A DNA stretch of 38,443 nucleotides from Candidatus Woesearchaeota archaeon CG11_big_fil_rev_8_21_14_0_20_43_8 (lineage in GTDB: Archaea; Nanobdellota; Nanobdellia; Woesearchaeales; CG08-08-20-14). Under the pieces are notes generated by a model, which worked only from the letters and a program-made list of their open reading frames with translations, did no database searches and was not told the DNA's origin. Both the position numbers and the translations under genes were made by a program. The stretch spans positions 1 to 38,443 of the forward strand of contig PCVE01000124.1 of the NCBI GenBank assembly GCA_002762705.1, given 5' to 3'. Shown here piece by piece: positions 2,264 to 35,233 of this stretch. The first letter of the stretch is position 1; each line of letters opens with the position of its first letter.

Positions 2264-5200
2264 CTAGCCAAGTCTCAGCTTCGCTGTCAGGTCGTTGAAG
2301 ACCCTGAAGATGCCATCAGGTGTCGCGAGATTGTTGTCATCTCTTGAGATGATCATATATTCATTCGCACTGACAAGCGATGTCCTTTTCGTGTTGTAGC
2401 AGCACCCATATTCTGGGAAATTCATGCCACATTCTTCAGCAGGCACAGTCTCTTTGACATTCTTTATGTAAGAACATAGATTTGAAGCGAAACCGCTATA
2501 TCTGATGCCGGCGAAATACCGCACATGTTTTGTGGAAGATGGCGTAGCCAATGGATCTGGTATCGTTGTAGTTCCCGTTGGGGTATCTTCGACGGCGTAT
2601 CCATCAATGATGCCAAACACGCTTTTTGTTCCCCAGACTGAATAATACAAGTTGTCATAATGCTTCAGGTCAGTTGTGAACTTATAATATTTGCTTCCAT
2701 CATAGCCTTTTGATGTGTCTTTGTATGTGTTCGCAAGAGATTTCAAGCTGTCGAATCTGTCCGTCAATCCTTTTCCAAGAATTCCATCGTTGATCCCTTT
2801 GCCAGGACTGGAAGATGAAAAAGCAGTAAGCGTGTTGATGCTCGTACCAAGTGAATAACCCGTCTCATCAGGCATGATGATAGTCGTGTTCGTGCTATCA
2901 TCGAAATAGATCTTGAGTTCACCATTCGAACAGAGATCATAATCATGATCATTGTTCATCTGATTGTTGCAGATAGTCATTTTCTCGCCGAGTGTCGCGA
3001 GAAGACCGCCGTTCAATACATTGTCATCAATCTTAGCATTGAGCGATGTGCCAAGAACAGTCTTGAACTGGTTGTTCTCATAGTATTCAAGCACGCAGAC
3101 ATTGTTTATCTCTTTGCATGTGTCTTCCTGACTTGAACAATCCAATGCTTCTGCGACAGTCTTCATGGAATTGTATGATTTATATTCGAGGAAGTTCAGC
3201 GCATCCCTTGGCTCTGCGCAGAAAACTGAATAATAGTTGCTTGTGCCTTTTATCTTCATGAGTTGAGCGAGAACCACAGCTGTCCTTGTCGTCCAGGCGC
3301 CATTGACGCAGTATGCGTCGTCTTCATAGTCACCATCATGGACGCATTCTTTCGATACGCTTGAATAACAATCAGTGTCTTTCTCGCAGTAGTTGGTATC
3401 GATGCCGTCAAAACTCGATTTAAGTTTCTTCTCGACCCACTGGCCGTTCGAGCATGCCATCTTCTCTGACACATCTGAATAATCCTTGCTGCTGACGCAT
3501 GTCGCACCGTCCCAGCATTCGTCGGATGGACAGCAGCCGATCGGGGCGGTCGTATCGCCAAAGAATGTGCTAGTTGTCACTTTAGAGATATCGGTGACAA
3601 GATCCACGTTATAGAGCGCGACATCATCGATCTCGCAACCGCCGATACCATTCGAGATGGCTTTGCTTGAAGAGATGATTATCCGCACTTGTTTATTTTG
3701 ATTGATTGTTCCTGATGTCTTGAAGACCTGCCTGCCGTTTGTGCTATCATAAGATTGCGTGCCTGGGATGTTTGCGCCGGCCATGTCGATCAGGCTTATG
3801 CTTACTGAGTTCTGCTGGCAGCCAGTCTTGACGCTGGCTTCATAGTTTGCGCTAACAGGTATCGCGACTGGATCTCCGACAATGGCTGCATTGTCTGAGA
3901 GTGTGATTGAATTCGATAACTGATCATTCACTTTTATCCCGCCGACAATGGTCTTATAAGATGTTCCCGGGATAGTCCTTGAGTTTGCAACACGCCATCC
4001 GGGAAGCACACGATCGGTGACATAGATACGATATTTGCAAGATTCACCGAATGGATAACTATTTGTATAATACATCTGCCAGTTGAATTCAGATATGATT
4101 GGAGTAATCGGTGCAGTCACTGTGAATGAAGGTTTGAGATCTGAACCCGCACCGACACTCTTGTCTTTCGCAAGGATAGCATCTGGACCTGTTGGAGAGA
4201 CGACAAGATCAGCGTCGCTCTGTGGCGTGATCTTCCAACCATCTGTTTTATGTTTCGCTGCGCTAAGCAAATAAAGACCCAGTTTATCATCGCCGACCCA
4301 ATCCTGGGCTGTTGAAGGATTCTTGATGGTGAGATCTACACTACCAACTTCGCCGACGAACATCTCGACAGGAGCGTCCCAGTTGCTGCAGACAGCGTCA
4401 TAATTAAGAGAACGCACATCGAATTTATTCAGAGTAGATGACAGCCATAACACACCATTGTTTGACAACGGGATCTTTGAGATCGGAAGATTTGAATTTA
4501 TTCCAGCAAGAACAAGAACTGGGCTGCCTGTTGCGAAAAAATCGATAACATCAAAGTTGAGATCAGTATATCCGCCGAGATATACTTCCAGCTGGTCATT
4601 CTTGTTGCCATCAGTCATCAATGCATTCATCGAAACAGAATATATATGCCAGGAATAATCACTTTTTATCTCGTCTTCTCCTTCAACACAGAATTCTTGA
4701 TAAGAATCACATATATCTTTGACGACATCGCCAGAATTCTCACCACCAAGCTCTTTGTCTGATGAATCGCTCGGTGCATTGAATTTGCTGATGCTGTTCA
4801 AAGTGACTTTGGTATCATCTGTGAGAACTGCGATATTGAGCTTGACAAGATCACTTTCAAGTATTCTATCTGCTGTCGGCTGCATGTCAGATTTGTATTC
4901 GACAGCCCTGATAGATAAAGGCACATTGAACGAATCTTTGTTGAATGTATCGATTGTGCCAACACCACTTGGTATCTTGGTCTCGATGCGGTTCACAGTG
5001 ATGTATGTATCGGTTGATGCATACCATTTAGGCTGCTTCCATCCTTTTGCTGGGACAGGAACAAGCTTGCTCACATCAATATAATTCTTCAGCTGCAGAT
5101 TCAAGTGAGTCTCTGACTTGTATTTATCATCTGAACTGAATTCAAGCGGTCTTGCAATGAAAGGTACAGCAAGACCTGTAGAATCGCACATGAGGTTCAT

Positions 5201-5632
5201 GTAAACTATTGAATCGAGTGGAGTGCTGCTAGAGATGCCTTCAACTTCTTCAGCGATCTCAGCGATAGTAAATGTCCTATAGCACCGATATAATTCTTTT
5301 CCATTGGATGTATATGGCTCGCAGGTCGCGCCATTAGTTCCGCTGATCCCTGCCCATCCTAATTCAGAACCATCAAAACCGATGGTGATATCTGATTTGA
5401 CAAAAGATGAATCCCAATAACCGCATGCATCACCTGTCATCTTTACATAGAACTCAAATTCGACTGGCTGCCCTTCTATGACTTTATCGAGGGGCTTTGC
5501 CCAGGCATCACCGCTAAAATCAATATTTGATGGTCCATCCACAAATTCGTCACCGCAATTAGACAATGTAAATATCGCAACAAGCATCAGGCATAGCAAC
5601 AAGATTTTTTTTTGAAATATATTCGTTTTCAT
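2264..5632 (-). CDS. large (1122 aa) secreted, lipoprotein-like Cys-rich surface protein of unknown function
   Basis: Long uninterrupted ORF. The track N-terminus (to 5812) overlaps the upstream gene. The internal ATG at 5632 gives MKTNIFQKKILLLCLMLVAIFTLSNC, a signal peptide ending in a lipobox-like Cys. The C-terminal third is Cys-rich (GCCPSDECWDGATC, EYGCCYN). A mid-region stretch (NWDAPVEMFVGEVGSVDLTIKNPS...) looks like an Ig/CARDB/NBR1-type beta-sandwich. Confidence 0.7.
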   Translation of the reverse strand: MKTNIFQKKILLLCLMLVAIFTLSNCGDEFVDGPSNIDFSGDAWAKPLDKVIEGQPVEFEFYVKMTGDACGYWDSSFVKSDITIGFDGSELGWAGISGTNGATCEPYTSNGKELYRCYRTFTIAEIAEEVEGISSSTPLDSIVYMNLMCDSTGLAVPFIARPLEFSSDDKYKSETHLNLQLKNYIDVSKLVPVPAKGWKQPKWYASTDTYITVNRIETKIPSGVGTIDTFNKDSFNVPLSIRAVEYKSDMQPTADRILESDLVKLNIAVLTDDTKVTLNSISKFNAPSDSSDKELGGENSGDVVKDICDSYQEFCVEGEDEIKSDYSWHIYSVSMNALMTDGNKNDQLEVYLGGYTDLNFDVIDFFATGSPVLVLAGINSNLPISKIPLSNNGVLWLSSTLNKFDVRSLNYDAVCSNWDAPVEMFVGEVGSVDLTIKNPSTAQDWVGDDKLGLYLLSAAKHKTDGWKITPQSDADLVVSPTGPDAILAKDKSVGAGSDLKPSFTVTAPITPIISEFNWQMYYTNSYPFGESCKYRIYVTDRVLPGWRVANSRTIPGTSYKTIVGGIKVNDQLSNSITLSDNAAIVGDPVAIPVSANYEASVKTGCQQNSVSISLIDMAGANIPGTQSYDSTNGRQVFKTSGTINQNKQVRIIISSSKAISNGIGGCEIDDVALYNVDLVTDISKVTTSTFFGDTTAPIGCCPSDECWDGATCVSSKDYSDVSEKMACSNGQWVEKKLKSSFDGIDTNYCEKDTDCYSSVSKECVHDGDYEDDAYCVNGAWTTRTAVVLAQLMKIKGTSNYYSVFCAEPRDALNFLEYKSYNSMKTVAEALDCSSQEDTCKEINNVCVLEYYENNQFKTVLGTSLNAKIDDNVLNGGLLATLGEKMTICNNQMNNDHDYDLCSNGELKIYFDDSTNTTIIMPDETGYSLGTSINTLTAFSSSSPGKGINDGILGKGLTDRFDSLKSLANTYKDTSKGYDGSKYYKFTTDLKHYDNLYYSVWGTKSVFGIIDGYAVEDTPTGTTTIPDPLATPSSTKHVRYFAGIRYSGFASNLCSYIKNVKETVPAEECGMNFPEYGCCYNTKRTSLVSANEYMIISRDDNNLATPDGIFRVFNDLTAKLRLG

Positions 5633-5642
5633 CGTGATCATC

Positions 5643-7415
5643 TCATTTAAGTTCGAATGTCGGGTTCGGCGCAAGGTTTGCAGATGATGGCGCATATGAC
5701 TTGGACAAAGAATAATCATCATTATATTCCAACCATCTTCCATCGAATGAGCAGTAATATTGATTGTCCAGATCAGACGATGCAGGCGCATCATATACGC
5801 TTTCTGTGACAACAGTGCACATGGAATTAGGTGTCACAAGATCAGCCCCATAATCATCACGGATACCAGTGCCAGAAATTATCGGGATCCCAAAAGAATA
5901 TGATTTCTTAGGTGGAGCGTTTTTGATGACTGTTGATGTGAGTCCAAGATTGACGCTTGTGTCCTTCAGATACCCTGCACCAGAACATCCTTGCACTTGT
6001 CCGCGTACAACAAGCCAATCAGATACTTGCATATCAAAGACAGCATTCTTGTCTACAGGATATGCGATTCCATCAAAACATGCTCCGCCGTCCGCATAAT
6101 GTTCTTTGTTGCTATTGATCGGCACACTATATTTATCATTATATGTCATGTCACCAAAGCAGCAATTGCTCCCCGTCCATTTGAACGTGCTTCCGCCTGA
6201 TCCGCTAGCACCAGAAAGCTTATTCACACCTAATTGGTTGCAAGTAGTATAATATTTACTATTTGTCCTAAGTGTGTTCTCACTGATCCATTCATATTCA
6301 TCCTTACCTTCCACTTTAGCGCAGAAATACATATCACCATCACAATTTGTGAATTCGCCATCATCATAATTCAAACCACCGAGGCTTCCATCATTGTTTG
6401 GTCCTGGACCGCACTCTGCCCAGCGATTCATAGATGAGAATCTATCAGCGCCGTCTCCAAAGTAAAGATAAGAATAAGATTTAGTGCTTGACGAATATTT
6501 TTTTACTGTGCATTTGTTCGGCCTCACATACCAATTGCTGCCATCAGACAACATTTCAACTCCAAGGATATTGATAATCTCACCACCATAATCCTTTGCG
6601 TCCAGCCAACCGGTTCCTGCATCGTTTTCTTCATCCAGATTGCATATTGATTGGAATGCAAGCGGAGATGTAGAGATGAGATTGTTTGTCCTTGCCATCT
6701 GGCCTGATGCTTGATATGAAAACGGAGTATAATATCCGCTTTGATCATTTGAATTCATTGCCCATGATCCATGATCCGCAAGATCATCACCACAGCATTT
6801 CATAGTCGGATCCCAATCCCATGGAGATTTGCAATCTGCTTGACTCTTATCTCCATCAACCTGATTTTCATAGATGTCGTATGTGGCTTCTTTATTAGAA
6901 TTCTGGAATGGATTCGAACTTCCAGAAGAAGATTCATCCAACCATATCATCCCTGCTGCAGGGGTTTTTGATAAATAGCTTGCGACAGTACCACCATTGC
7001 CTGATACTATCGTCTTGAATGTGCTCTCTTCGATATAAAAAAGCCATTGCGGTGTTCCGCTTGAAGGGGGGATGTTCGGCAGTGCATTAGTAAAAGACAT
7101 AGTAGCTTTAGATAATGAAGGAACAGATAGTTTCATAGTCGCGACATAGCCGCTGATGACATTCATGCTGCTTGCACTATCTACCACAACAAGGTAAGTC
7201 TCATAGTTTTTATCGACTGCTGTTTTCATTGCATCTCTCATATCATATTCTAAGGAACCTGATGCAGCGTTGGAATCCTGGTTTGCATTGAACCATAAAG
7301 CGAAATTTACTCTTTCTGTCGAAGACATCATCGCAGCGCTCGCAAACGGGATAAGAAACATAAGAAGTATCATTGTGATTGGGATCATTCGTGATAAGAG
7401 TCCTGTTCTCTCCAT
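5643..7415 (-). CDS. secreted Cys-rich protein (590 aa) of unknown function
   Basis: ATG at 7415 is preceded by AAGAGGT. The N-terminal signal peptide is MERTGLLSRMIPITMILLMFLIPFASA. It carries vicinal-Cys motifs KCCGDDLADHG and NCCFGDM. The stop (5643-5645) lies 2-11 nt from the start of the next gene, so the two are probably co-transcribed. Confidence 0.7.
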   Translation of the reverse strand: MERTGLLSRMIPITMILLMFLIPFASAAMMSSTERVNFALWFNANQDSNAASGSLEYDMRDAMKTAVDKNYETYLVVVDSASSMNVISGYVATMKLSVPSLSKATMSFTNALPNIPPSSGTPQWLFYIEESTFKTIVSGNGGTVASYLSKTPAAGMIWLDESSSGSSNPFQNSNKEATYDIYENQVDGDKSQADCKSPWDWDPTMKCCGDDLADHGSWAMNSNDQSGYYTPFSYQASGQMARTNNLISTSPLAFQSICNLDEENDAGTGWLDAKDYGGEIINILGVEMLSDGSNWYVRPNKCTVKKYSSSTKSYSYLYFGDGADRFSSMNRWAECGPGPNNDGSLGGLNYDDGEFTNCDGDMYFCAKVEGKDEYEWISENTLRTNSKYYTTCNQLGVNKLSGASGSGGSTFKWTGSNCCFGDMTYNDKYSVPINSNKEHYADGGACFDGIAYPVDKNAVFDMQVSDWLVVRGQVQGCSGAGYLKDTSVNLGLTSTVIKNAPPKKSYSFGIPIISGTGIRDDYGADLVTPNSMCTVVTESVYDAPASSDLDNQYYCSFDGRWLEYNDDYSLSKSYAPSSANLAPNPTFELK

Positions 7416-7528
7416 TTTGTACCTCTTTTATTATATTAGTATAGGAATTCATTCTCATTACGTATATAAAAAGTTATCGGACCAAAAAGGTTAAATACGG
7501 ATTATGCAAATAATATTCATTGGATAAC

Positions 7529-8326
7529 ATGGGAGACCCAAAAACAGCATTACTTGCTTATATCAAGAAAGAGGAAAACAAAGGATTTGACGAGGCGAAG
7601 ATAAGAAAGACACTTGTCAACGCTGGCTATCCAGATAGTCTTGTCAATGAAGTCTATGACGATTACAATCATTCTAAGACTGCTCAGGTTGAAGTCAAGC
7701 AGCCTAAACCTGAGATCAAAGCTCCTGAGAACCACGCCCATATGGCAAAATGGTTCTGGGCGCTGATCGTGATTATCCTTATATTTGCCTGCGCTGCTGG
7801 CTTCTTATATTATCAATACTATTATAATGCGACTCCAACACAAGAGACTACGACAGATATCTCTGTCCAGGCCGCTGTCGTGCAGGAGACACTCAGCCTC
7901 GAAGACAAGAAGAATTTCTGCAGGGGCGTCAGTGCGACAAGCATCGAGACATGTGAGAAAGTCACAGATGAAGATGCTATGGCTGAATGCCTGTATTATG
8001 TGACGCTTTTCAAGATATTCGACGGAAGCCCCAGCATAACCTGTTATTCGAACGCATATCCAGCGTACAAATCCATATGCTTGTTGACAAAAAGAGGCGA
8101 GACAGAATACTGTGGAAGGCACTGTGAGACTGTCGCCGCGAATATCAACAAGGATTCTTCGCGATGCCCGATAGATGCAGAGAACTGCGATGGTGCGCTT
8201 GTTATCTGGAACTCGAAAGCAGGCACGATACAGAACGGCTGCAGTGCTCTGGAAGGCGAACACAGGATCGCGGCGTGCAAAGCGCTATCTACACAGAACA
8301 GAAATGTATGTGAAGAATTGGAATGA
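7529..8326 (+). CDS. single-pass membrane protein with a Cys-rich extracytoplasmic domain
   Basis: The track start at 7520 is TTG; the first ATG is at 7529. The layout is a soluble N-terminal ~85 aa, then a TM helix WFWALIVIILIFACAAGFLYY, then a ~150-aa domain with about 14 Cys. No family was recognised. Confidence 0.6.
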   Translation: MGDPKTALLAYIKKEENKGFDEAKIRKTLVNAGYPDSLVNEVYDDYNHSKTAQVEVKQPKPEIKAPENHAHMAKWFWALIVIILIFACAAGFLYYQYYYNATPTQETTTDISVQAAVVQETLSLEDKKNFCRGVSATSIETCEKVTDEDAMAECLYYVTLFKIFDGSPSITCYSNAYPAYKSICLLTKRGETEYCGRHCETVAANINKDSSRCPIDAENCDGALVIWNSKAGTIQNGCSALEGEHRIAACKALSTQNRNVCEELE

Positions 8327-8340
8327 ATTCTTTATGAAGG

Positions 8341-10725
8341 TCAAGGCAATGCTGCTGTCGCTTTGATTAAAGACCAAAGATCGGTGATGTCTTTCTTCCC
8401 AGCCAGACAGAAGTCATCATTGTTGTCAGTGCGCACAACAAAAGTCTTCGCGCCGAAATTCTGGTCGCAATTACAGAAAGATGCATAATCATTTTTCTTG
8501 TTACTATCGATCACAACAACACCATAATAATCCGGGCCGCCATTTACTTTAGATGCGACGAATTGATTGAGCTTTGAAGCGACCCAGCTGAATGCGAGAG
8601 ACCCATTATAGCATGCAGTCTGTATACCCATCGTTAATTTTCTTCGTTCGATGTCATATACCGCATTATACGATTCATCTATCAAGGCATACAGGCTATC
8701 AGCGAGCCGGTTGAACTCAGAATTTGGATTCGAGAGTACTGTCGATTCAGGATAATTCAAAGCGACGAAGACCACATTGAGTTTTTTCTTTGAAGAACCT
8801 GATGGCGAAATCACCATCTGTAACGGACCCTGTTCAGTCATATCATCGCACTGCACTGCGCTTGGGTATCCGCAGACTGTCCCTGAACCAGTTTTCTGCT
8901 GGTCGATCGCAAATTTGATGTCCTGATAATCTTCTAAAGAGCCATCAGACGCAGTCACCCTCATCACCGGACCTCCTTTGCAGCAATCTTTCTGCTCGAG
9001 CTCATAACCGCGGGCTTCATCGAACTTGGTGTTCACATTCCGTCCATCGATGCTGAATTCGACTTCGTCTTCATCCGGATCTATCGCCTGCAGGACATAA
9101 CGATAGATATAATCAGTTGACGGTGATTCCTTGAACACATCCTTAATCCACATGCTCCTTGTCTCGTGATATAGATCGCAACCATTCATAGTGGTGCCTG
9201 CTGCACCCGGGGTAGTGCCAGTTCCAGTGCCAGCCACGCCAGGACCGACACTTGGAGATGTAACTGCCATAGGAACATAACCAGTCGGCCAAGTGATCGG
9301 CGGACAAGGGTTCTTTGTGGCTTTAATAATGTCAGCATTGATATGCGTGCTTGTGTCTTTTGGCATGAAGATCACTGCGCGCTGCCTGCCGTCTTTATCT
9401 TCTCTGTGGAATTCGATTATGTTTCCATTCGTCGTTGTCCCAGAGATATGGAACTGAAGACCTGTGAAACTACTTCCACCTACAGGATCAAGCCATATCT
9501 GCTCGAACGCATCATCAGTCGTCGTCGATGCGACAATGCTTCCGTCTATCCCTTTTCCCCATTGCTTGCCATTCATTTCATCCAACTCAGAGACATAATA
9601 CAATGCAGGCGCTCGGTTCTGTCTCACGAAACGCCAGACATACGGCTTGTTTCCGACTGTGGATTTCTTGTCGACAACCTCGATGATATCATCGAAATAA
9701 TATCCAGCAATCTCGCCATCAGCATAAGGCTCTTCTCCTTCCAAATAGCGATCCTCGCCATCAGCGACGCTCACAGTGGCGCTATCCTTTCCGAGCAGAT
9801 AGCGTCCTGACGAATCGTCGTCATCCTGATTGAGATAAAGAGGCCCATCGATCGTGATATTGAAAGCAGGATCCATAGTCTCACGTTTTATCATCTCGAT
9901 GATTGCATCATATAATCTTTTTAGACGGACATTCACTTTGTATGTGAACTTATCGAAACGGACTTTATCATTCCCATCTGAAAATTCGACAGGATAATCC
10001 AAATACACACGGAAATCGTTCTTTGTCAGAAGCACAGAGACATTCATCGCAAGATCAGAGGTCACACCCATCTCTTTGATATCATATGTATGCGACAATT
10101 GCTTGTAATCGCCAAGACAGGCACCCATGTTGTTCATGATATATGCTTTCAGTTTCCCTTCGATCGAACCAGCGCCGTCTTTCTCATATAGATGAGGGAC
10201 GATGACACGGCCAAACACAGGAGAATCGAATGATAGTTCACCAAGAGTCAGTCCGCCACTGTTGTCAAGATCCTTGTATGGGAACTTCTTCCACGGATAG
10301 TCTGGCACATTTGGACATGACGAGAAATCATCTGTGCAGCCACCCATCATGCTTCTTGTGATCCAGTATGGAACCATGCATTCACTTTTTCCGCAGGAAT
10401 CATAATACACAAAATAGACCCCTTCATAATTATCAGTGAGATCATCATCTATCCCACCTTGTTCCTTATAGATATAACCGCCTTGTTTCCCGAACAGTTC
10501 AAGGGCCTTATCAGTCATGTCTTCGAAACATGATTGTATGAAAGACTGGATCATTGTCTTATCGATCGCGCTTTTCGCGGTCTCGACAGGTGTCACCGCA
10601 TCCTTCCCTTCAGTCTTGCCATGTGTAGAGACATAGATGAAGAAACCTATACCGAGCAGAAAAAAGACTCCGACTATGATGAAAAAAGTCATCTGGGCTT
10701 TTTTTCCTTGATGTTTCATATACAT
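8341..10725 (-). CDS. large (794 aa) N-terminally anchored extracellular protein, possibly with a pilin-like signal and a cadherin/He_PIG-like Ig domain
   Basis: The track start at 10743 is TTG; ATGs occur at 10725 and 10719. The N-terminus MYMKHQGKKAQMTFFIIVGVFFLLGIGFFIYV is a basic stretch followed by a hydrophobic helix. The stretch YRYVLQAIDPDEDEVEFSIDG...MRVTASDGSLEDYQDIKFAI resembles cadherin-like Ig repeats. A CC pair occurs in QKDCCKGG. Confidence 0.7.
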   Translation of the reverse strand: MYMKHQGKKAQMTFFIIVGVFFLLGIGFFIYVSTHGKTEGKDAVTPVETAKSAIDKTMIQSFIQSCFEDMTDKALELFGKQGGYIYKEQGGIDDDLTDNYEGVYFVYYDSCGKSECMVPYWITRSMMGGCTDDFSSCPNVPDYPWKKFPYKDLDNSGGLTLGELSFDSPVFGRVIVPHLYEKDGAGSIEGKLKAYIMNNMGACLGDYKQLSHTYDIKEMGVTSDLAMNVSVLLTKNDFRVYLDYPVEFSDGNDKVRFDKFTYKVNVRLKRLYDAIIEMIKRETMDPAFNITIDGPLYLNQDDDDSSGRYLLGKDSATVSVADGEDRYLEGEEPYADGEIAGYYFDDIIEVVDKKSTVGNKPYVWRFVRQNRAPALYYVSELDEMNGKQWGKGIDGSIVASTTTDDAFEQIWLDPVGGSSFTGLQFHISGTTTNGNIIEFHREDKDGRQRAVIFMPKDTSTHINADIIKATKNPCPPITWPTGYVPMAVTSPSVGPGVAGTGTGTTPGAAGTTMNGCDLYHETRSMWIKDVFKESPSTDYIYRYVLQAIDPDEDEVEFSIDGRNVNTKFDEARGYELEQKDCCKGGPVMRVTASDGSLEDYQDIKFAIDQQKTGSGTVCGYPSAVQCDDMTEQGPLQMVISPSGSSKKKLNVVFVALNYPESTVLSNPNSEFNRLADSLYALIDESYNAVYDIERRKLTMGIQTACYNGSLAFSWVASKLNQFVASKVNGGPDYYGVVVIDSNKKNDYASFCNCDQNFGAKTFVVRTDNNDDFCLAGKKDITDLWSLIKATAALP

Positions 10726-10741
10726 ATCTTCTTTTGAAAGC

Positions 10742-10755
10742 AATATTTAAATATT
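10742..10755. promoter_or_regulatory. perfectly palindromic TATA element in a divergent promoter
   Basis: AATATTTAAATATT equals its own reverse complement. It lies 17-30 nt from the ATG at 10725 (minus strand) and 22-35 nt from the ATG at 10777 (plus strand), which is consistent with two near-leaderless divergent transcripts. Confidence 0.45.
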
Positions 10756-11180: not shown

Positions 11181-11455
11181 GGACAGACACGCCTGCAGAT
11201 GGACAGCAGTCCTGAATGATGGCTACCTTGAACTCTTCTCAATCCCGCTACCCCGAAGACACCAACATCATATGTTATAGCTGCTTTCTTCCGAACCTGA
11301 CTAATTCCATAAAACATCGGCCCAATGGGACAGGATATCATCGGCCAGACCAAGACCAGTCACGCAAGGCGACTGCCTCTCCACAGACTTCGACTCCGCC
11401 GTATAGTCCGGTTGCGGTTACAAGAGGGGACTAGCCACCCAGTCTAAGTCTGTCC
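11181..11455 (-). ncRNA. signal recognition particle RNA (archaeal 7S / SRP RNA)
   Basis: The minus-strand RNA begins GGACAGAC and ends GUCUGUCC, so the termini can pair. It contains the Alu-domain-like stretch CCCCUCUUGUAACCGCAACCGGACUAUACGGCGGAGUCGAAG. It also has the helix-8 signature AGUCAGGUUCGGAAGAAAGCAGC (compare the universal GUCAGGUCCGGAAGGAAGCAGC). A TATA box lies ~29 nt upstream. Confidence 0.85.
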
Positions 11456-11952: not shown

Positions 11953-13719
11953 TTATATTATCTCGAAATCGACGCATATCCGATATACATGTGGAGCATG
12001 CTGTCCGCATTTGACTGTATTTAGGATTCTGTATTCCATCTTGTTATTTTCACAAGCCTTCCTGATTTTTTCATGCGCATCTGAGAAATTGTCTTCTGCC
12101 AAGAAATCATAGAAATGTATGATTGTCCCTTTCTTTGCAGCAAGCAGCGCAGAATCAAGGAAATCTTCAGCTGACTTTGGGAGTGGCATCAAAATACGAT
12201 CGAACTTCCTGACTGTGCGCCCTAAAGCCTCATAACTCCTAAGCATCTCTATCAGATGCATCTCATCTTTATCAGTCACTTCAGTGACACCAAGGTTGAC
12301 ATATGGCAAGACACGGGAAAAATCGACAAATCCTTTTCCAATCTCACATGAATGCGCCTTATAATCATGATCATTCAGATGAAAATAAGTATTGAAATGC
12401 AGGCGTACCTCTTTTATGTGCTTCTCCACCTTGGCATTGTCCTGATATGTGATGAACAGATGACATATATCTATACACATATTTTTGATGCCTGCTTTCT
12501 TTCCGATCCGTATGATCTCATCCGCCTTTCCAAATATCCCTTTTGTCGTGTTCTCAAAATAAAAATAATCGAAATACTCTGAGATTTTCTTCAGGTTCTT
12601 GACAAGGACTTCTTCTTCTTCTGCGATGCCGATATACTGCGATGGATGAACGACAGCTTTTATATGATACTTCTTGCATAATCTTCCAAGCGTCCTTAGC
12701 ATGGCAAGCTCTGGACCGACATCTCTTTGTGCAAGGGTATACCTGACACCGCCATGTGAGAAAGGCATATGGAGCACCACATCGATGCCTTTTGATTGCA
12801 ATCCCACAATTGTCGCTTCAAGTCGCTCTGATCCCAAAGAAAGATCATCCTCATGCAGATGAAGTTCCATTATGACCAGATGCTCTTTTAGTCTTTCATC
12901 AAGCTGTTTCTCATCATCAGATGATTTCAATCCGACGATATGATGGAAGATATTAGGCACAATCTCTTTCACATCTCCATTGATGAGGATGACATTATGG
13001 AGCCTGTTCAATCTCACATTCTCCATGCCATACATATGCCCGGCTGGATTGAGCTCTATCCCAAAGACAGACCTTGCCTTTGTGTTCTTTGAGATCACAC
13101 ATGGATAAGGAGCGCATCCAGAGAACATGACAAGGACGTCTTCCATCGGAGCTATCTCCATCATGATCCTTTTCCTCTCAGTGCTGAGCCTTGGAGAAAA
13201 ATATACATCTTCGACATTAAGCTTCAGTGTCACGCCATTCTCTTTATGGAAAGTCTCTTTCCGATCTTCACCTGCTAGATGCACCATATTCTGCGTCCGG
13301 AATGTACCACCATGTATGCCGCCTTTCTTCAGCACCACTTTCAGGTTCTTATGAAGATCAAGAAGCGTCTCTGCTATCAGCGTCTCTTTTTCTTTCAGCT
13401 CATCATCAATCTCGATGATCGCTATATCGCCCACCTGATCGAACGCAGTCTTCAATTGCGCCATCTCTTCTTCTGTCAATATGCAGCTCAATCGCTCCTG
13501 TAGGCCGGCAGGTGGATCACGGCATGGAAGATCCCGATCCACAAATTCGACAAAATTGAACTCCTCTTTGATCCTGTCCTTGACATCAGGAGATATGATT
13601 GCCATATAGATATAAGACCCATCTTTATCAGCGAAGAATCTATTGTCATGGAATGAATTCTTGATGATGAATTGCTTCACTTCGTTCGCTGATTTCAATG
13701 GTATCTTCGCCGCTTGCAT
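11953..13719 (-). CDS. Trm5/Taw2 (Met-10+) family tRNA methyltransferase carrying a nested TIM-barrel domain
   Basis: The N-terminal and core regions match archaeal Trm5: VGDIAIIEI, GGTFRTQNMVHLAGE, HKENGVTLKLNVEDVYFSPRLSTERKRI, and SAM motifs VLVMFSGCAPYP and GIELNP. The C-terminal region also matches: FDRILMPLPKSAEDFLDSAL...GTIIHFYDF. About 245 aa are inserted between the two halves. The GTG at 13728 is the track start; the ATG at 13719 is preceded by GGTGA with 5-nt spacing. Confidence 0.8.
   Translation of the reverse strand: MQAAKIPLKSANEVKQFIIKNSFHDNRFFADKDGSYIYMAIISPDVKDRIKEEFNFVEFVDRDLPCRDPPAGLQERLSCILTEEEMAQLKTAFDQVGDIAIIEIDDELKEKETLIAETLLDLHKNLKVVLKKGGIHGGTFRTQNMVHLAGEDRKETFHKENGVTLKLNVEDVYFSPRLSTERKRIMMEIAPMEDVLVMFSGCAPYPCVISKNTKARSVFGIELNPAGHMYGMENVRLNRLHNVILINGDVKEIVPNIFHHIVGLKSSDDEKQLDERLKEHLVIMELHLHEDDLSLGSERLEATIVGLQSKGIDVVLHMPFSHGGVRYTLAQRDVGPELAMLRTLGRLCKKYHIKAVVHPSQYIGIAEEEEVLVKNLKKISEYFDYFYFENTTKGIFGKADEIIRIGKKAGIKNMCIDICHLFITYQDNAKVEKHIKEVRLHFNTYFHLNDHDYKAHSCEIGKGFVDFSRVLPYVNLGVTEVTDKDEMHLIEMLRSYEALGRTVRKFDRILMPLPKSAEDFLDSALLAAKKGTIIHFYDFLAEDNFSDAHEKIRKACENNKMEYRILNTVKCGQHAPHVYRICVDFEII
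12211..12948 (-). other. inserted xylose-isomerase-like / AP-endonuclease-2-like TIM-barrel domain within the methyltransferase ORF
   Basis: Approximately residues 261-506 of the track ORF. The motifs are MELHLHEDD, VVLHMPFSHGG, KAVVHPSQ, FYFENT, CIDICHLF and FHLNDHDYKAHSCEIGKGFVDFSRVL. The last resembles the EndoIV/xylose-isomerase-fold pattern hLnD...H..iG.G.idf. Boundaries are approximate. Confidence 0.6.
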
Positions 13720-13728
13720 AATATTCAC

Positions 13729-14760
13729 CTAAAAATCAAAAAGTGATTTCTGTTTTTGGTTATTCTTGTATTCATCAAGACTCTTCAGTGTGGTCTCTAC
13801 CCTATCCACGGAGAAATCATGATTCTCGCAAAGTATCTCTTTTATCTTATCAAGATCCGGATTTTTCCATGAAAGTGCATAATCATCTGAGACTTTCATC
13901 TTCAGAAACACATCCATGACATCAGTATAAGGATAGTCAAAATGCTCTTCCCATTTCTGATCTGAAAAAAGTGTATCAAAATCATGTCCATGCTGTTTCA
14001 CTAGCTTGATAGCGTTCTTTGGTCCGATTCCGGGTATCCCGCCGATATCAAAATCAGTCCCGACAAGCACGCCGACCGCGACAAGCTGTTCTCTTGTGAT
14101 CATATTCTTGGTCAATACTTCGTCAAGTTCGATCATCTGGGGATGAAATGATTCATATGAAAGACTGCTCTTGACTTTACGTCTCTCGCTGATTGTCAGA
14201 TTCTGCACCATGCGCGGGACACCAAACAAAAGATTATCATAATCCTGCGAGATGCACCCATACACTTCACCTTTTCTTACTATATGCGCAGCCTGGGCCT
14301 CTCCTTCAGAAGGTGCTTCGATACATGGAAGTCCAAGTGCCTTGACGAGCGCTTTCGCTTCATCTATCATATCCTTTGTCAGCTTGGAAGTCCTGGCAGC
14401 GTATTTACGCATGCCATCGATATCTTCACTCTTCTCCGCTGCCTTGAATCTTGAATGCGCATCATCCTTAAGTCTCGCTCTCCTTTCTCTTTCCTTTTTC
14501 TTCAAAACAGGTGGTTCTCCATCAAAGACAAATGCTAGTCTTATCCCATTCTGCATCAATCTGGTAGTTCGTGCGAAAAGACCGGTCAGATGAGATGTCA
14601 CATTGCCTTTTGAATCAGTGAGAAGCGATCCATCCCTTTGCCTTATCGTCGAAAGGAACTGATAAAGTATATTGAATGCATCGACAGTGAAGGCTTTCCC
14701 AGACAGATCACCAAGCATGATCTCGTTCTTGACGACAATGTCTTTTATGTTCACTCCCAT
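13729..14760 (-). CDS. fen: flap endonuclease 1
   Basis: MGVNIKDIV...AFTVDAFNILYQFL...GNVTSHL...AFVFDGEPP are XPG-N/XPG-I motifs. An H3TH region is present (GTDFDIGGIPGIGPKNA). The C-terminus carries a PIP box, QKSLFDF. The track N-terminus (14871) was trimmed to the ATG at 14760, which gives the canonical MG start. Confidence 0.95.
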   Translation of the reverse strand: MGVNIKDIVVKNEIMLGDLSGKAFTVDAFNILYQFLSTIRQRDGSLLTDSKGNVTSHLTGLFARTTRLMQNGIRLAFVFDGEPPVLKKKERERRARLKDDAHSRFKAAEKSEDIDGMRKYAARTSKLTKDMIDEAKALVKALGLPCIEAPSEGEAQAAHIVRKGEVYGCISQDYDNLLFGVPRMVQNLTISERRKVKSSLSYESFHPQMIELDEVLTKNMITREQLVAVGVLVGTDFDIGGIPGIGPKNAIKLVKQHGHDFDTLFSDQKWEEHFDYPYTDVMDVFLKMKVSDDYALSWKNPDLDKIKEILCENHDFSVDRVETTLKSLDEYKNNQKQKSLFDF

Positions 14761-14841
14761 TTTTATACACCATAGAGCATCTTGGATGCAATATAAATTT
14801 TTGGATAAATATTTATATAGTCTCTTATCACGACAAGCAAT
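14761..14841. promoter_or_regulatory. divergent promoter region between FEN1 and TatD
   Basis: 81-bp AT-rich gap. One TATA-like element, aatataaattt (14790-14800), faces FEN1. Another, aaatatttatatag (14807-14820), sits ~25 nt before the TatD ATG. Confidence 0.45.
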
Positions 14842-15630
14842 ATGACTATCATGGTTGATGTGCACGCACATCTGGACTATCCTTTATTTGAAGAGGATCT
14901 GGATGAAGTGATAAAAAGAGCAAAAGAAGCTGGAGTAAAAGCAATCATCCAGAATGGGATAAATCCAAAGACAAACAGGAAGACGCTAGAGCTTGCAGAA
15001 CGATATGACATCATCAAACCAGCGCTTGGACTTTATCCGATAGATGCGCTCCAAGCAGAAGTCGCCGATGCGACATATGATATCGACTGCACTCCGTTCG
15101 ATGTCGACGAAGAGATCAGATTCATCGAAAAGCAAAAAGACCAGATAATCGCTATCGGAGAAGTCGGCCTTGATTACAATTGGATCAAAGACAGATGTGA
15201 TGAACAGAAAGACACTTTCTCAAAGATAATCAGGCTTGCAGAGAAGATAAAAAAACCGATCATTGTCCATTCACGAAAAGCAGAGATAGATATCTTAGAC
15301 ATGCTTGAGTCTTCAAGACTGAAAAAAGTCGTCTTGCATTGTTTCTGCGGCAGATCAAGCCTGGTGAAGCGAGCAGTTGATGATGGATATAGCTTTTCGA
15401 TACCAGCAAATATAGTAAGAGATATGCATTTCCAGAAGATCGCTGCCGAGATACCTACCAATCAGATATTGACTGAGACCGACGCGCCATTCCTGAGCCC
15501 TTTTCGCGGAAAACGAAATGAACCGGCATTCATAAGTGAATCATTGAAGAAGATATCTGAACTCCGCGGCCTCACAGTAGAAGAGACGAGCAATCTGATA
15601 TATCTCAATTATCAAAGAATGTTTCTATGA
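14842..15630 (+). CDS. tatD: TatD-family metal-dependent hydrolase (DNase)
   Basis: The VDVHAHLDYP HxH motif, IGEVGLDY, PIIVHSR, VLHCF and ILTETDAPFL are typical TatD/amidohydrolase signatures. An alternative ATG lies at 14851. Confidence 0.9.
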   Translation: MTIMVDVHAHLDYPLFEEDLDEVIKRAKEAGVKAIIQNGINPKTNRKTLELAERYDIIKPALGLYPIDALQAEVADATYDIDCTPFDVDEEIRFIEKQKDQIIAIGEVGLDYNWIKDRCDEQKDTFSKIIRLAEKIKKPIIVHSRKAEIDILDMLESSRLKKVVLHCFCGRSSLVKRAVDDGYSFSIPANIVRDMHFQKIAAEIPTNQILTETDAPFLSPFRGKRNEPAFISESLKKISELRGLTVEETSNLIYLNYQRMFL

Positions 15631-15854: not shown

Positions 15855-15974
15855 AAATTTCACCTCTTTTGTCCGTTTTGGCGTAGTGTGAAACACTACT
15901 TAATCCTATCAATATACTTCATGATATTTAAACGTTTCTAAAAAAATAAATGTTTATTGTATTTTTAACTCTTG

Positions 15975-17063
15975 ATGAAAAAAATAAAGATTTCAAAAAC
16001 AAAACACAGTTCATGGAAATGCGGGAAGCTTGCAAAAGGTTGCCGACTATGCGTGAAGGGACAAAAACTTGTGCTTTATGTCACAGGCATATGTGGGAAG
16101 AATTGTTATTTCTGCCCTCTTAGCGAGAAAAGAAAAAACAAAGATCTCACGTGGGCAAATGAGATGCTTGTGAAGAAAAAATCCGACGCCATCACAGAAG
16201 CGAGACTATGCGATGCCAAAGGCGCAGGTATAACCGGAGGAGATCCATTGCTTCGCCTGAAGAGGACTGTCAGCTACATAAAGACATTGAAAAAAACATT
16301 TGGAGATGATTTTCATATACATCTATACACACCATTAGAAAATGTCACTGAAAAAAATCTGAAGATACTTCATAAAGCTGGATTAGACGAGATAAGATTC
16401 CATCCTGAATTAAGAGACCAAAGGCTCTGGGACAAGATAAAGATCGCAGGAAAATTATCCTGGGATGTCGGTGTCGAGATCCCAGTTATCCCTGGTGATG
16501 AGAAAGAGATCAAGAATCTGATAAAGACTATATCGACTGAGATAGATTTCATAAATCTAAATGAGCTCGAGATCTCTGATACTAATCGGGATGCGTTCAG
16601 GAAAAAAGGATTCATCCAGAAAAACAAAGTATCATATGGTGTGAAAGGGAGCGAACAGCTCGCGAAGAGAATCCTGCGCTATTGTTCACAGATAGGTCTT
16701 TCTGCGCATTATTGCACAACGACATTGAAAGATAAGGAACAGCTTGGAAGCAGGCTGAAACGACGTGCCAAATCAATCGCATGTGGATATGATATCATCA
16801 CTGATGAAGGCCTTTTGTATCGAGGCGCGATCGAATCATCATCTGATGATCTTATTTCGCTGAGAAAAAGGCTCATGAGAAGATATGACATCCCAAAATA
16901 TCTTATCGGGACAGACAGAGAACAACGACGTCTGCTGATCGCTTCATGGATACTGATCGAGATCGCAGACGATGTACATTCTAAATACCATGAATTGATC
17001 TTATCACTTGTTGAAGAATACCCGACATGCGACCTTCTGAAGACTGATGTGCGATACATCTGA
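15975..17063 (+). CDS. radical SAM protein (COG2108-like, related to pyruvate formate-lyase activating enzymes)
   Basis: CGKNCYFC is a CxxxCxxC cluster motif near the N-terminus, and GITGGDPLL is a glycine-rich SAM motif. The track start at 15972 is TTG; the ATG is at 15975. Confidence 0.8.
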   Translation: MKKIKISKTKHSSWKCGKLAKGCRLCVKGQKLVLYVTGICGKNCYFCPLSEKRKNKDLTWANEMLVKKKSDAITEARLCDAKGAGITGGDPLLRLKRTVSYIKTLKKTFGDDFHIHLYTPLENVTEKNLKILHKAGLDEIRFHPELRDQRLWDKIKIAGKLSWDVGVEIPVIPGDEKEIKNLIKTISTEIDFINLNELEISDTNRDAFRKKGFIQKNKVSYGVKGSEQLAKRILRYCSQIGLSAHYCTTTLKDKEQLGSRLKRRAKSIACGYDIITDEGLLYRGAIESSSDDLISLRKRLMRRYDIPKYLIGTDREQRRLLIASWILIEIADDVHSKYHELILSLVEEYPTCDLLKTDVRYI

Positions 17064-35141: not shown

Positions 35142-35233
35142 TGCGCCGGCCGGGATTCGAACCCGAATCAAAGGCTCACTTCACCATGCATAGGTTTGGA
35201 AGGCCTCTATCCTAGCCATTAGACTACCGGCGC
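35142..35233 (-). tRNA. tRNA-Gly(UCC) with a ~20-nt intron at the anticodon loop
   Basis: Minus strand: acceptor GCGCCGG/CCGGCGC with A73. The D arm is GUCU-AAUGGCUA-GGAU. The anticodon stem is GAGGC/GCCUU with loop CUUCCAA. About 20 extra nt (AACCUAUGCAUGGUGAAGUG) sit between the loop and the 3' half of the stem. The T arm is UCGGG-UUCGAAU-CCCGG. No CCA is encoded. Confidence 0.85.

Follow-up and report, generated by a model that had tools for sequence, protein, structure and literature searches.

What is a second, apparently active metallo-enzyme doing in the middle of the catalytic domain of a tRNA methyltransferase? This question is raised by a stretch of 38,443 nucleotides from Candidatus Woesearchaeota archaeon CG11_big_fil_rev_8_21_14_0_20_43_8 (GenBank assembly GCA_002762705.1, contig PCVE01000124.1, positions 1 to 38,443 of the forward strand; hereafter the window), where one open reading frame (ORF), at 11953..13728 on the minus strand, encodes Trm5, an enzyme that safeguards the reading frame and is near-universal in archaea and eukaryotes, and, nested inside it, a complete (beta/alpha)8 barrel of the superfamily to which endonuclease IV belongs. 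Read from its sequence, this one polypeptide carries two catalytic modules, the Trm5 methyltransferase and the nested metallo-barrel. Both domains belong to known superfamilies; the combination, a Trm5 with a nested AP_endonuc_2 barrel, appears to be undescribed, as the initial annotation of the locus (prepared from the letters alone) had suspected, and no description of it was found in the searchable literature.

The gene is read in a single frame from a GTG start to a TAA stop (11953-11955) and specifies 591 amino acids; an alternative ATG at 13717-13719, which is the start that the initial annotation had used, would give 588. Its identity as a Trm5/TYW2-type methyltransferase, first proposed by eye, was borne out by alignment to solved Trm5 proteins and by Pfam, where TRM5-TYW2_MTfase (PF02475) was matched in two stretches (135.8 bits, cut-off 28) and TYW2_N_2 (PF25133) at residues 76-155 (72.5 bits, cut-off 27.7), with AP_endonuc_2 (PF01261) at residues 297-473 (42.5 bits, cut-off 31.1). 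The protein has the same D1-D2-D3 layout as PaTrm5b (5yac), PaTrm5a/Taw22 (5wt1, 5hji) and MjTrm5b (2yx1, 2zzn), all parts lying on the minus strand: D1 (residues ~1-72; 13513..13728) aligns to D1 of PaTrm5b, PaTrm5a and MjTrm5, D2 (residues 76-155; 13264..13503) is the TYW2_N_2 domain and contains R144, the equivalent of MjTrm5 R145, and the Rossmann fold of D3 comes in two parts. The N-terminal part (residues 159-257; 12958..13254) holds Y176, E184, VLVMFSGCAPYP at residues 198-209, GIELNP at 223-228 (with E225) and INGDVKEI at 249-256 (with D252), and the C-terminal part (residues 508-591; 11956..12207) contributes the strand FDRILM, MPLPK at 514-518 with the PLPK catalytic loop at 515-518 (12175-12186), F542 and R583; these methyltransferase motifs had all been picked out correctly at the outset.

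What lies between the two parts of D3 was defined by a phmmer search against the PDB, in which residues 5-256 and 508-590 matched residues 19-258 and 261-344 of PaTrm5b, and the same two stretches likewise aligned to consecutive parts of PaTrm5a and MjTrm5. Since the two segments of PaTrm5b are consecutive, the ~247 residues that separate their counterparts here (261-507; 12208..12948, minus strand) are an insertion at a short loop, between S-adenosylmethionine (SAM) motif III (D252) and the PLPK catalytic motif, where solved Trm5 proteins have a loop of ~6-13 residues; the initial annotation had put the displacement of the catalytic motif at ~245 residues. Deleting the insert in silico gave a sequence that aligned end to end with all solved Trm5 and TYW2 proteins (E = 5e-56 to 4e-23, and 5e-56 to 3e-41 for PaTrm5b, PaTrm5a and MjTrm5b). 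An AlphaFold2 model built from an alignment of 33 full-length homologues (predicted local distance difference test, pLDDT, 92.9 over the whole chain; predicted template modelling score, pTM, 0.82) places a regular eight-unit beta/alpha barrel in the Rossmann fold, after strand 246-250 and helix 253-263 and before strand 509-514, and Foldseek matched this model across the gap to Trm5b, Trm5a, MjTrm5 and TYW2 with target-normalised template modelling (TM) scores of 0.71-0.86 (0.74-0.86 for Trm5b, Trm5a and TYW2, and 0.71-0.75 for the solved Trm5 proteins listed above). Because these matches span the gap, the two methyltransferase halves form one domain, and a complete AP_endonuc_2 barrel of the triosephosphate isomerase (TIM) type is nested in the catalytic domain, as the split Pfam hits and the PDB alignment had also indicated. 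The barrel takes the place of what is otherwise a short loop at the surface of the Rossmann fold, between beta3 and beta4.

This nested Trm5 architecture is not a singleton; it recurs as a family in at least 27 GTDB species of Woesearchaeota and Nanoarchaeota. An exhaustive HMMER search with the insert alone found 110 cluster representatives (protein clusters counted at 50% identity), ~40 of which have the N-terminal part, the insert and the C-terminal part in this order, and ~50 of which are standalone barrels of ~250-290 residues; a k-mer-seeded homology search with the same query returned one relative only, and the family is seen only by the exhaustive search. In addition, 27 further nested genes were found in GTDB species genomes, all labelled Woesearchaeota, Nanoarchaeota or Nanoarchaeia, some 'uncultured Methanosarcinales'. 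The last label is carried by contigs L005, L006, L012, L016-L019 and others (third-party annotation, TPA, 'binchicken' assemblies under 'uncultured Methanosarcinales archaeon'), whose Trm5-FEN1 loci are of the Woesearchaeota/Nanoarchaeota type, and it is probably a placeholder or wrong. In two nested homologues, P0074 (636 aa) and P0108 (610 aa), the methyltransferase halves stand further apart, and only the C-terminal half of the barrel is recognisable between them against the window insert; these two proteins may hold a divergent or expanded N-terminal half. The nested homologue P0003 bears the source-assigned name (Joint Genome Institute, JGI) "tRNA (guanine37-N1)-methyltransferase" only, the sole such name found, which serves as a warning for annotation.

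The junction stands at the same place in every nested allele, ...GDVKxxVP-x-I / IGLKS...barrel... / xKFDRILMPLP, at the position where plain alleles carry the loop VPKLKKKFDR, and the junctions of all 28 nested alleles read ...VPNIFHHIVGLKS... and ...GRTVRKFDRILM..., with the three parts in one ORF in the window and in 27 of 27 GTDB loci (28 of 29 alleles overall). That the arrangement is nevertheless an artefact, whether through chimeric assembly, through a frameshifted gene pair or through an intron or intein that the mature protein would lack, is vanishingly improbable: one contig, L001, does have the gene broken by a frameshift inside the barrel, but the junctions are shared by 27 GTDB genomes and ~40 protein clusters from independent samples, which rules out an assembly chimera, the three parts share one frame, and the model (pTM 0.82) packs the barrel against D3. 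The initial annotation had also seen no intein hallmarks, and indeed Pfam gave no Hint, LAGLIDADG or HNH hit in the window ORF and no intein junction residues (N-terminal Cys/Ser, or His-Asn followed by Cys/Ser/Thr) were found at the junctions of the 28 alleles; together with the single frame in 28 of 29 alleles this rules out an intein or an ORF-bearing intron, the junction RNA not having been searched for a bulge-helix-bulge. Flanking or terminal repeats, target-site duplications and a compositional break were likewise looked for at the junctions and none was found. The broken gene itself (L001:8942-10470) belongs to a metagenomic relative with 55% identity; its frameshift lies near 9830-9860 and gene calling has split it into products of 322 and 178 aa, it also lacks D1, and the frameshift could be a sequencing error or a sign of a pseudogenised insert.

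The insert is a facultative accessory domain that is under purifying selection where it is present. In the pair L002/L003, the window's closest relatives, the ratio of nonsynonymous to synonymous substitution rates (dN/dS) is 0.10 for the insert (238 codons) vs 0.15 for the methyltransferase part. Taking the adjacent FEN1 gene as an independent marker of relatedness, the nested L005 and the plain L047 are 81% identical in the methyltransferase part and in FEN1 alike, and the nested L010 and the plain L050 share 85% identity in FEN1 and 73% in the methyltransferase part; it is these contrasts, together with the state of L037, that show the insert to be facultative. In L037 (5734-7491) an insert of ~217 aa persists in frame at the same site with H320K, H361P, H423I, H450G and E483S, and it appears decayed or repurposed. 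Where pairs are related vertically, the insert has changed at twice the rate of its host or more (methyltransferase vs insert identity 82% vs 63%, and 78% vs 44%), whereas in the clade of the window (WIN, L002, L003, L004, L008) insert identity is 61-75%, methyltransferase identity 60-66% and FEN1 identity 51-56%, which would fit either a stronger constraint in this clade or an insert that has been exchanged horizontally. When the 59 nested and 46 standalone barrels were placed in one neighbour-joining tree, support was confined to shallow groups and to two clades of standalone barrels, the backbone being star-like. The insert would be derived from a family of ~250-aa standalone barrels of DPANN archaea and some bacteria, and would have been repeatedly lost, or gained or exchanged, at exactly one site. 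A more distant standalone barrel of 252 aa (L057:7595-8353; motifs HTAW, IHTN, LES, DIGH, HLHDNDG, LEI) lies ~1.3 kb downstream of an insert-free Trm5, with a methyltransferase-like gene between the two.

Is the methyltransferase still a methyltransferase? Alignment to MjTrm5 (2yx1) places its R145, Y177, E185, D223, D251 and P267, with roles taken from the literature, at R144, Y176, E184, E225, D252 and P517 of the window protein, and all six are invariant or nearly so in 33 nested proteins. With every mapped catalytic residue intact, the enzyme appears not to be disabled and should still make 1-methylguanosine at position 37 (m1G37). The initial annotation had noticed MPLP in place of NLP and wondered whether the chemistry had been altered along with the insertion; the motif is indeed present, but the pattern FD[RH][IV][LIV]MPLP is shared by at least 591 Trm5 genes of the lineage, most of the 80 kept being of ordinary length (~335 aa), and since MPLP is common in insert-free genes it is a trait independent of the insert, so that an insert-linked change of chemistry is ruled out. 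The change from Asn to Pro resembles the PTPK motif of the bifunctional PaTrm5a: the window reads PLPK where Trm5b has NLPK, whose Asn is 'absolutely conserved in Trm5bs' and clashes with 4-demethylwyosine (imG-14), and the Pro of PaTrm5a allows the second methylation, with F284 and K324 contacting imG-14 (PMC5714064). F542 and R583 stand at the positions of these two PaTrm5a residues, and in combination with P515 they suggest that the window enzyme may be Trm5a-like, accepting imG-14 too. The NCBIfam equivalogs for Trm5b (237.9 bits vs a cut-off of 600) and Taw22 (192.6 bits vs 550) are not reached, and no Taw1 was found in the 38-kb window, to which this search was confined. A radical-SAM ORF at 15972-17063 (plus strand, 363 aa, ~2 kb from Trm5) was considered for that role and ruled out, as no Taw1/TYW1 model matched it; it has weak similarity to HxsC, CofH and MoaA-type models.

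What, then, is the barrel? A profile built from nested inserts and standalone relatives had MJ1311 (3wqo) as its best PDB match at 6e-16, then a series of endonuclease IV structures from 6e-12 to 7e-5 (5zhz, the M. tuberculosis End, at 6e-12; 2x7v at 4e-7; 4hno, 3aam, 1xp3, 3aal and APN1) and MbnB at 4e-4, with sugar isomerases only at E > 0.1. MJ1311 has been listed as a predicted endonuclease IV homologue of M. jannaschii (PMC2770678). The AP_endonuc_2 model of Pfam is matched by 51 of the 60 barrel family members, and the barrel modelled alone has eight beta/alpha units (pLDDT 93.6). Among the NCBIfam models, the one hit by the most family members is that of the CbiR phosphodiesterase (NF041277; 19 of 60, and 12 of the 33 nested proteins), the deoxyribonuclease IV model being matched at E <= 0.01 by six of the 33 nested proteins, none near the cut-off, and an epimerase model by three of the 60 family members and one of the 33. 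In my reading the barrel probably represents an uncharacterized clade beside the phosphodiesterase families (MJ1311, endonuclease IV and CbiR) and not among the sugar isomerases. Of the double label of the initial annotation, sugar isomerase or apurinic/apyrimidinic (AP) endonuclease, it is thus the AP-endonuclease side that stands, the sugar isomerase being less likely by profile, by NCBIfam and by two extra histidines. Those histidines, of the H320/H361 type at beta3 and beta4, are known as hallmarks of the trinuclear-site members and are not known as such in epimerases, and no ketose epimerase is known to have the two N-terminal ligand histidines that are conserved here.

The putative metal and catalytic residues of the barrel are nearly invariant. 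Across the 59 nested and 46 standalone homologues, K268 (12925-12927), E288 (12865-12867), H320 (12769-12771), E392, D420, H450 and E483 (12280-12282) are invariant and H361 (12646-12648), N393, H423 and D453 nearly so, a set spanning 12280..12927 on the minus strand, with E392-N393 at 12550-12555, D420/H423 at 12460-12471 and H450/D453 at 12370-12381; the pattern E-H-H-E-D-H-H-E is intact in 57/59 nested and 43/46 standalone members. H320, H361, E392, D420, H423, H450 and E483 align with seven endonuclease IV ligands, and the pair D229/H231 of that enzyme corresponds to one residue, H459 (12352-12354), a position occupied by H, D or E in 52 of the 59 nested members; as putative ligands, this His/Glu/Asp constellation would correspond to eight of the nine ligands of the endonuclease IV trinuclear metal site. 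The motifs read at the outset, LHMP, VVHPS, YFEN, IDICH, FHLNDHD and AHSCEIGKGFVDF, are all where they had been placed, and in the profile alignment the barrel residues fall on the M. tuberculosis End ligand motifs HAPYL, VHGG, LEN, DTCH, HCND and CET. In more general form, H-x-P, V-H-P, E-N, D-x-x-H, H-x-N-D, G-x-G and a terminal E stand against H69, H109, E145, D179/H182, H216 and E261 of endonuclease IV (Nfo/End/APN1; 1qtw, 2x7v, 5zhz, 10nh), which together with MJ1311 shares the TIM-barrel superfamily and supplies the best profile matches. However, compared with endonuclease IV the barrel is ~40-50 aa shorter, has the additional invariant K268 and E288, and is nested in another enzyme. CbiR, similarly compact (~250 aa) and of the same superfamily, is a characterized metal-dependent phosphodiesterase of cobamide remodelling in Akkermansia that acts on a small molecule (PMC7733943); its hosts are cobamide-salvaging bacteria, whereas those of the barrel are DPANN archaea.

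The barrel would most likely be an active metal-dependent phosphodiesterase or phosphatase. That it acts on a nucleic-acid phosphoester, most probably in a tRNA held by the Trm5 scaffold, is the reading that I favour, tentatively and at somewhat under an even chance, the chemistry included; it might, for instance, heal ends, or cleave the chain where a nucleotide of the anticodon loop or its vicinity is damaged or abasic. The barrel would in this case also add to tRNA binding, which would explain why D1 is expendable. In solved Trm5-tRNA complexes D1 contacts the outer corner of the tRNA (summarised in PMC5714064), and among loci L002-L081 and the window D1 is absent from 11 of 28 nested and two of 53 plain alleles (Fisher p = 8e-5, without correction for phylogeny). 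Furthermore, nested inserts have a median isoelectric point (pI) of 8.8 vs 5.75 for standalone relatives. D1 loss and basic nested inserts hint at an interplay with tRNA binding and are suggestive, not proof. A more specific version I consider unlikely, one in which the barrel, as a metallo-phosphodiesterase directed at tRNA, would cooperate with Trm5 at the anticodon loop and partly replace D1 in docking the tRNA: it would incise or heal tRNA that is damaged or abasic at or beside position 37 or, alternatively, process a 2',3'-cyclic-phosphate or 3'-phosphate end at the 37/38 intron site. If the barrel does act on tRNA, it would add a new activity, the repair or processing of tRNA, to those of DPANN archaea, whose minimal genomes make each kept domain informative, and would offer the first functional handle on an endonuclease IV/CbiR-like clade that includes the solved orphan MJ1311; the specific version would make the protein a hitherto unknown bifunctional enzyme for tRNA modification and repair or quality control, and the endonuclease IV relatives of the MJ1311-like clade would have a function for the first time.

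Several observations weigh against this tRNA-directed phosphoesterase, whose chemistry, substrate and coupling to tRNA I infer. The NCBIfam scores are low (CbiR 22-29 bits vs a cut-off of 105, with no CbiR hit for the window insert at E <= 0.01; deoxyribonuclease IV 14.8 bits at best vs 244, PRK01060.1-3), the nearest solved relative, MJ1311, was deposited as an uncharacterized protein, and the D229/H231 pair of endonuclease IV is reduced to the single H459. Also, the YLINL motif, which in endonuclease IV follows the first ligand histidine and intercalates in the minor groove of DNA, appears not to be conserved: the window reads LHMPFSHGGVRYTLAQ, and the family consensus 'HqPvrykgkrlnLas' can be aligned to 'HAPYL-----INLAS' of the M. 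tuberculosis End only if a gap of five residues is opened. Judged on fold without sequence, the top matches are ketose 3-epimerases (UlaE and DTE, TM 0.70-0.76), endonuclease IV/APN1 first appearing at Foldseek rank 19. In addition, there are standalone barrels without a Trm5 partner and Trm5 enzymes of close relatives without the insert, from which it follows that Trm5 does not need the barrel, nor the barrel Trm5; the association with D1 loss ignores phylogeny; and the window's own insert, with a pI of 6.5, is not basic. As to the fold, UVDE and APN1 come close behind the epimerases in TM-score, and because all three superpose similarly the fold does not decide the chemistry, which makes the fold search uninformative as an arbiter between nuclease and epimerase. 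For MJ1311, the structure paper is reported to have found the endonuclease IV ligands conserved and no DNA-binding groove, a point that is not used as evidence here.

The main rival to a barrel acting on the tRNA of its host is that the barrel is a passenger, an endonuclease IV-type DNA-repair enzyme (AP endonuclease/3'-diesterase) that became lodged in a tolerant Trm5 loop during genome streamlining, the two activities being unrelated and having in common only their polypeptide and an operon with FEN1; I would call this somewhat unlikely. It would account for the nearest solved and named relatives (endonuclease IV, MJ1311, deoxyribonuclease IV), for a ligand set of the trinuclear nuclease type, for standalone homologues in archaeal genomes and for the dispensability of the insert in close relatives. 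Topology is in agreement with it as well: the catalytic face of a TIM barrel is opposite the end where the chain enters and leaves, and by this general rule the catalytic face of the barrel would point away from the Trm5 junction. For the same reasons, dispensability and barrel termini that normally lie opposite the catalytic face, the suggestion of the initial annotation that nesting turns the two active sites towards one substrate has not been borne out as such. The gene is also directly downstream of FEN1, a long-patch base-excision-repair partner; however, FEN1 is directly upstream of Trm5 in most Woesearchaeota/Nanoarchaeota loci (L002-L081), nested and plain alike, so the pair is a lineage trait that gives no clue to the insert, and the adjacency is ruled out as a sign of base excision repair. 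The shorter barrel, apparently without YLINL and without the full D229/H231 pair, and scores far under the deoxyribonuclease IV cut-offs, fit a canonical repair enzyme poorly, and neither the association with D1 loss nor the basic shift of nested copies would be expected of an unrelated enzyme. Even as a passenger, the barrel would be a case of nature inserting a domain into a Rossmann-fold loop, present in some close relatives and absent from others, and would be useful for protein engineering and for the study of how multidomain enzymes originate.

The lesser alternatives begin with a small-molecule enzyme, which would isomerise, epimerise or dehydrate a sugar or nucleoside-sugar or cleave a small phosphodiester as CbiR does, and which could act on the modified nucleoside 37. 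The best superpositions, on UlaE (3cqj), D-tagatose/D-psicose 3-epimerases and the TM0416 protein (2zvr), with TM 0.70-0.76 and a root-mean-square deviation of 3.6-4 A, agree with it, as do the E-D-H-E metal core that ketose and sugar-phosphate epimerases share with the barrel, a standalone homologue (P0012) adjoining a Gfo/Idh/MocA oxidoreductase and a TrmB-family regulator, and the small-molecule substrate of CbiR, the nearest NCBIfam model. Identity to these epimerases is 12-15%, though, with profile E-values above 0.01-0.1, and isomerases and epimerases are at E > 0.1 against 1e-16 to 1e-5 for MJ1311/endonuclease IV; one nested protein in 33 touches the epimerase model, H320 and H361 point to the trinuclear-site members, and no cobamide or sugar-catabolic genes are found near the Trm5 gene in the window, all of which makes this quite unlikely. 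Less probable again is a non-catalytic module, which would serve mainly to bind tRNA or as a structural element, stabilising Trm5 or standing in for D1, with its conserved residues binding structural metals. Enriched D1 loss in nested alleles, the basic pI of nested copies, the retention of the domain in L037 despite five replaced ligands and, in most clades, a rate of insert evolution at least double that of the methyltransferase part would all suit it; yet the eight-residue set is intact in 57/59 nested members and equally so in standalone proteins that have no Trm5 partner, dN/dS is 0.10, and a purely structural role would not need every ligand. Highly improbable, finally, is an in-frame element of the selfish kind, in which recombination or homing would have carried a nuclease domain from one Trm5 allele to another, into one tolerant site and without protein splicing. 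Like inteins and homing-endonuclease insertions, the barrel is a nuclease-like domain whose in-frame position in a conserved and probably essential gene is always exactly the same and whose presence among close relatives is patchy, and in the window clade its identity equals or exceeds that of the methyltransferase and FEN1, elsewhere the insert being at least twice as fast. Unlike inteins, it has no Hint domain or splice residues, and the model makes it a stable component of the mature protein; unlike homing endonucleases, endonuclease IV-type enzymes are, as is well established, structure-specific and not sequence-specific, and the insert is under purifying selection no weaker than that on its host enzyme. 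The lack of terminal repeats and of a compositional break at the junctions also speaks against it, the star-like backbone of the insert tree does not demonstrate horizontal spread, and rate heterogeneity with repeated loss explains the same data.

As for the surroundings of the gene, FEN1 (flap endonuclease; 13729..14760, minus strand) precedes Trm5 with zero spacer; its homology starts at M38 of ORF 13729..14871 (ATG 14758-14760), leaving a 37-codon N-terminal extension. The standalone barrels had no consistent context in the five neighbourhoods examined, where neighbours included TrmB regulators, a Gfo/Idh/MocA oxidoreductase, an RsmB-type methyltransferase and, on one bacterial contig, a penicillin-binding protein. 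An archaeal signal recognition particle (SRP) RNA (RF01857, 114.8 bits) lies at 11181-11455 on the minus strand, ~500 nt downstream of Trm5, and a tRNA-Gly(TCC) at 35142-35233, also on the minus strand, is long at 92 nt and probably contains an intron; the two RNAs together mark the window as archaeal. Four large consecutive ORFs, at 2264-5812, 5643-7415, 7520-8326 and 8341-10743 (1182, 590, 268 and 800 aa), have no Pfam match at E <= 0.001, and the 800-aa protein has a hydrophobic start and Gly/Thr-rich stretches; the four may be lineage-specific surface proteins.

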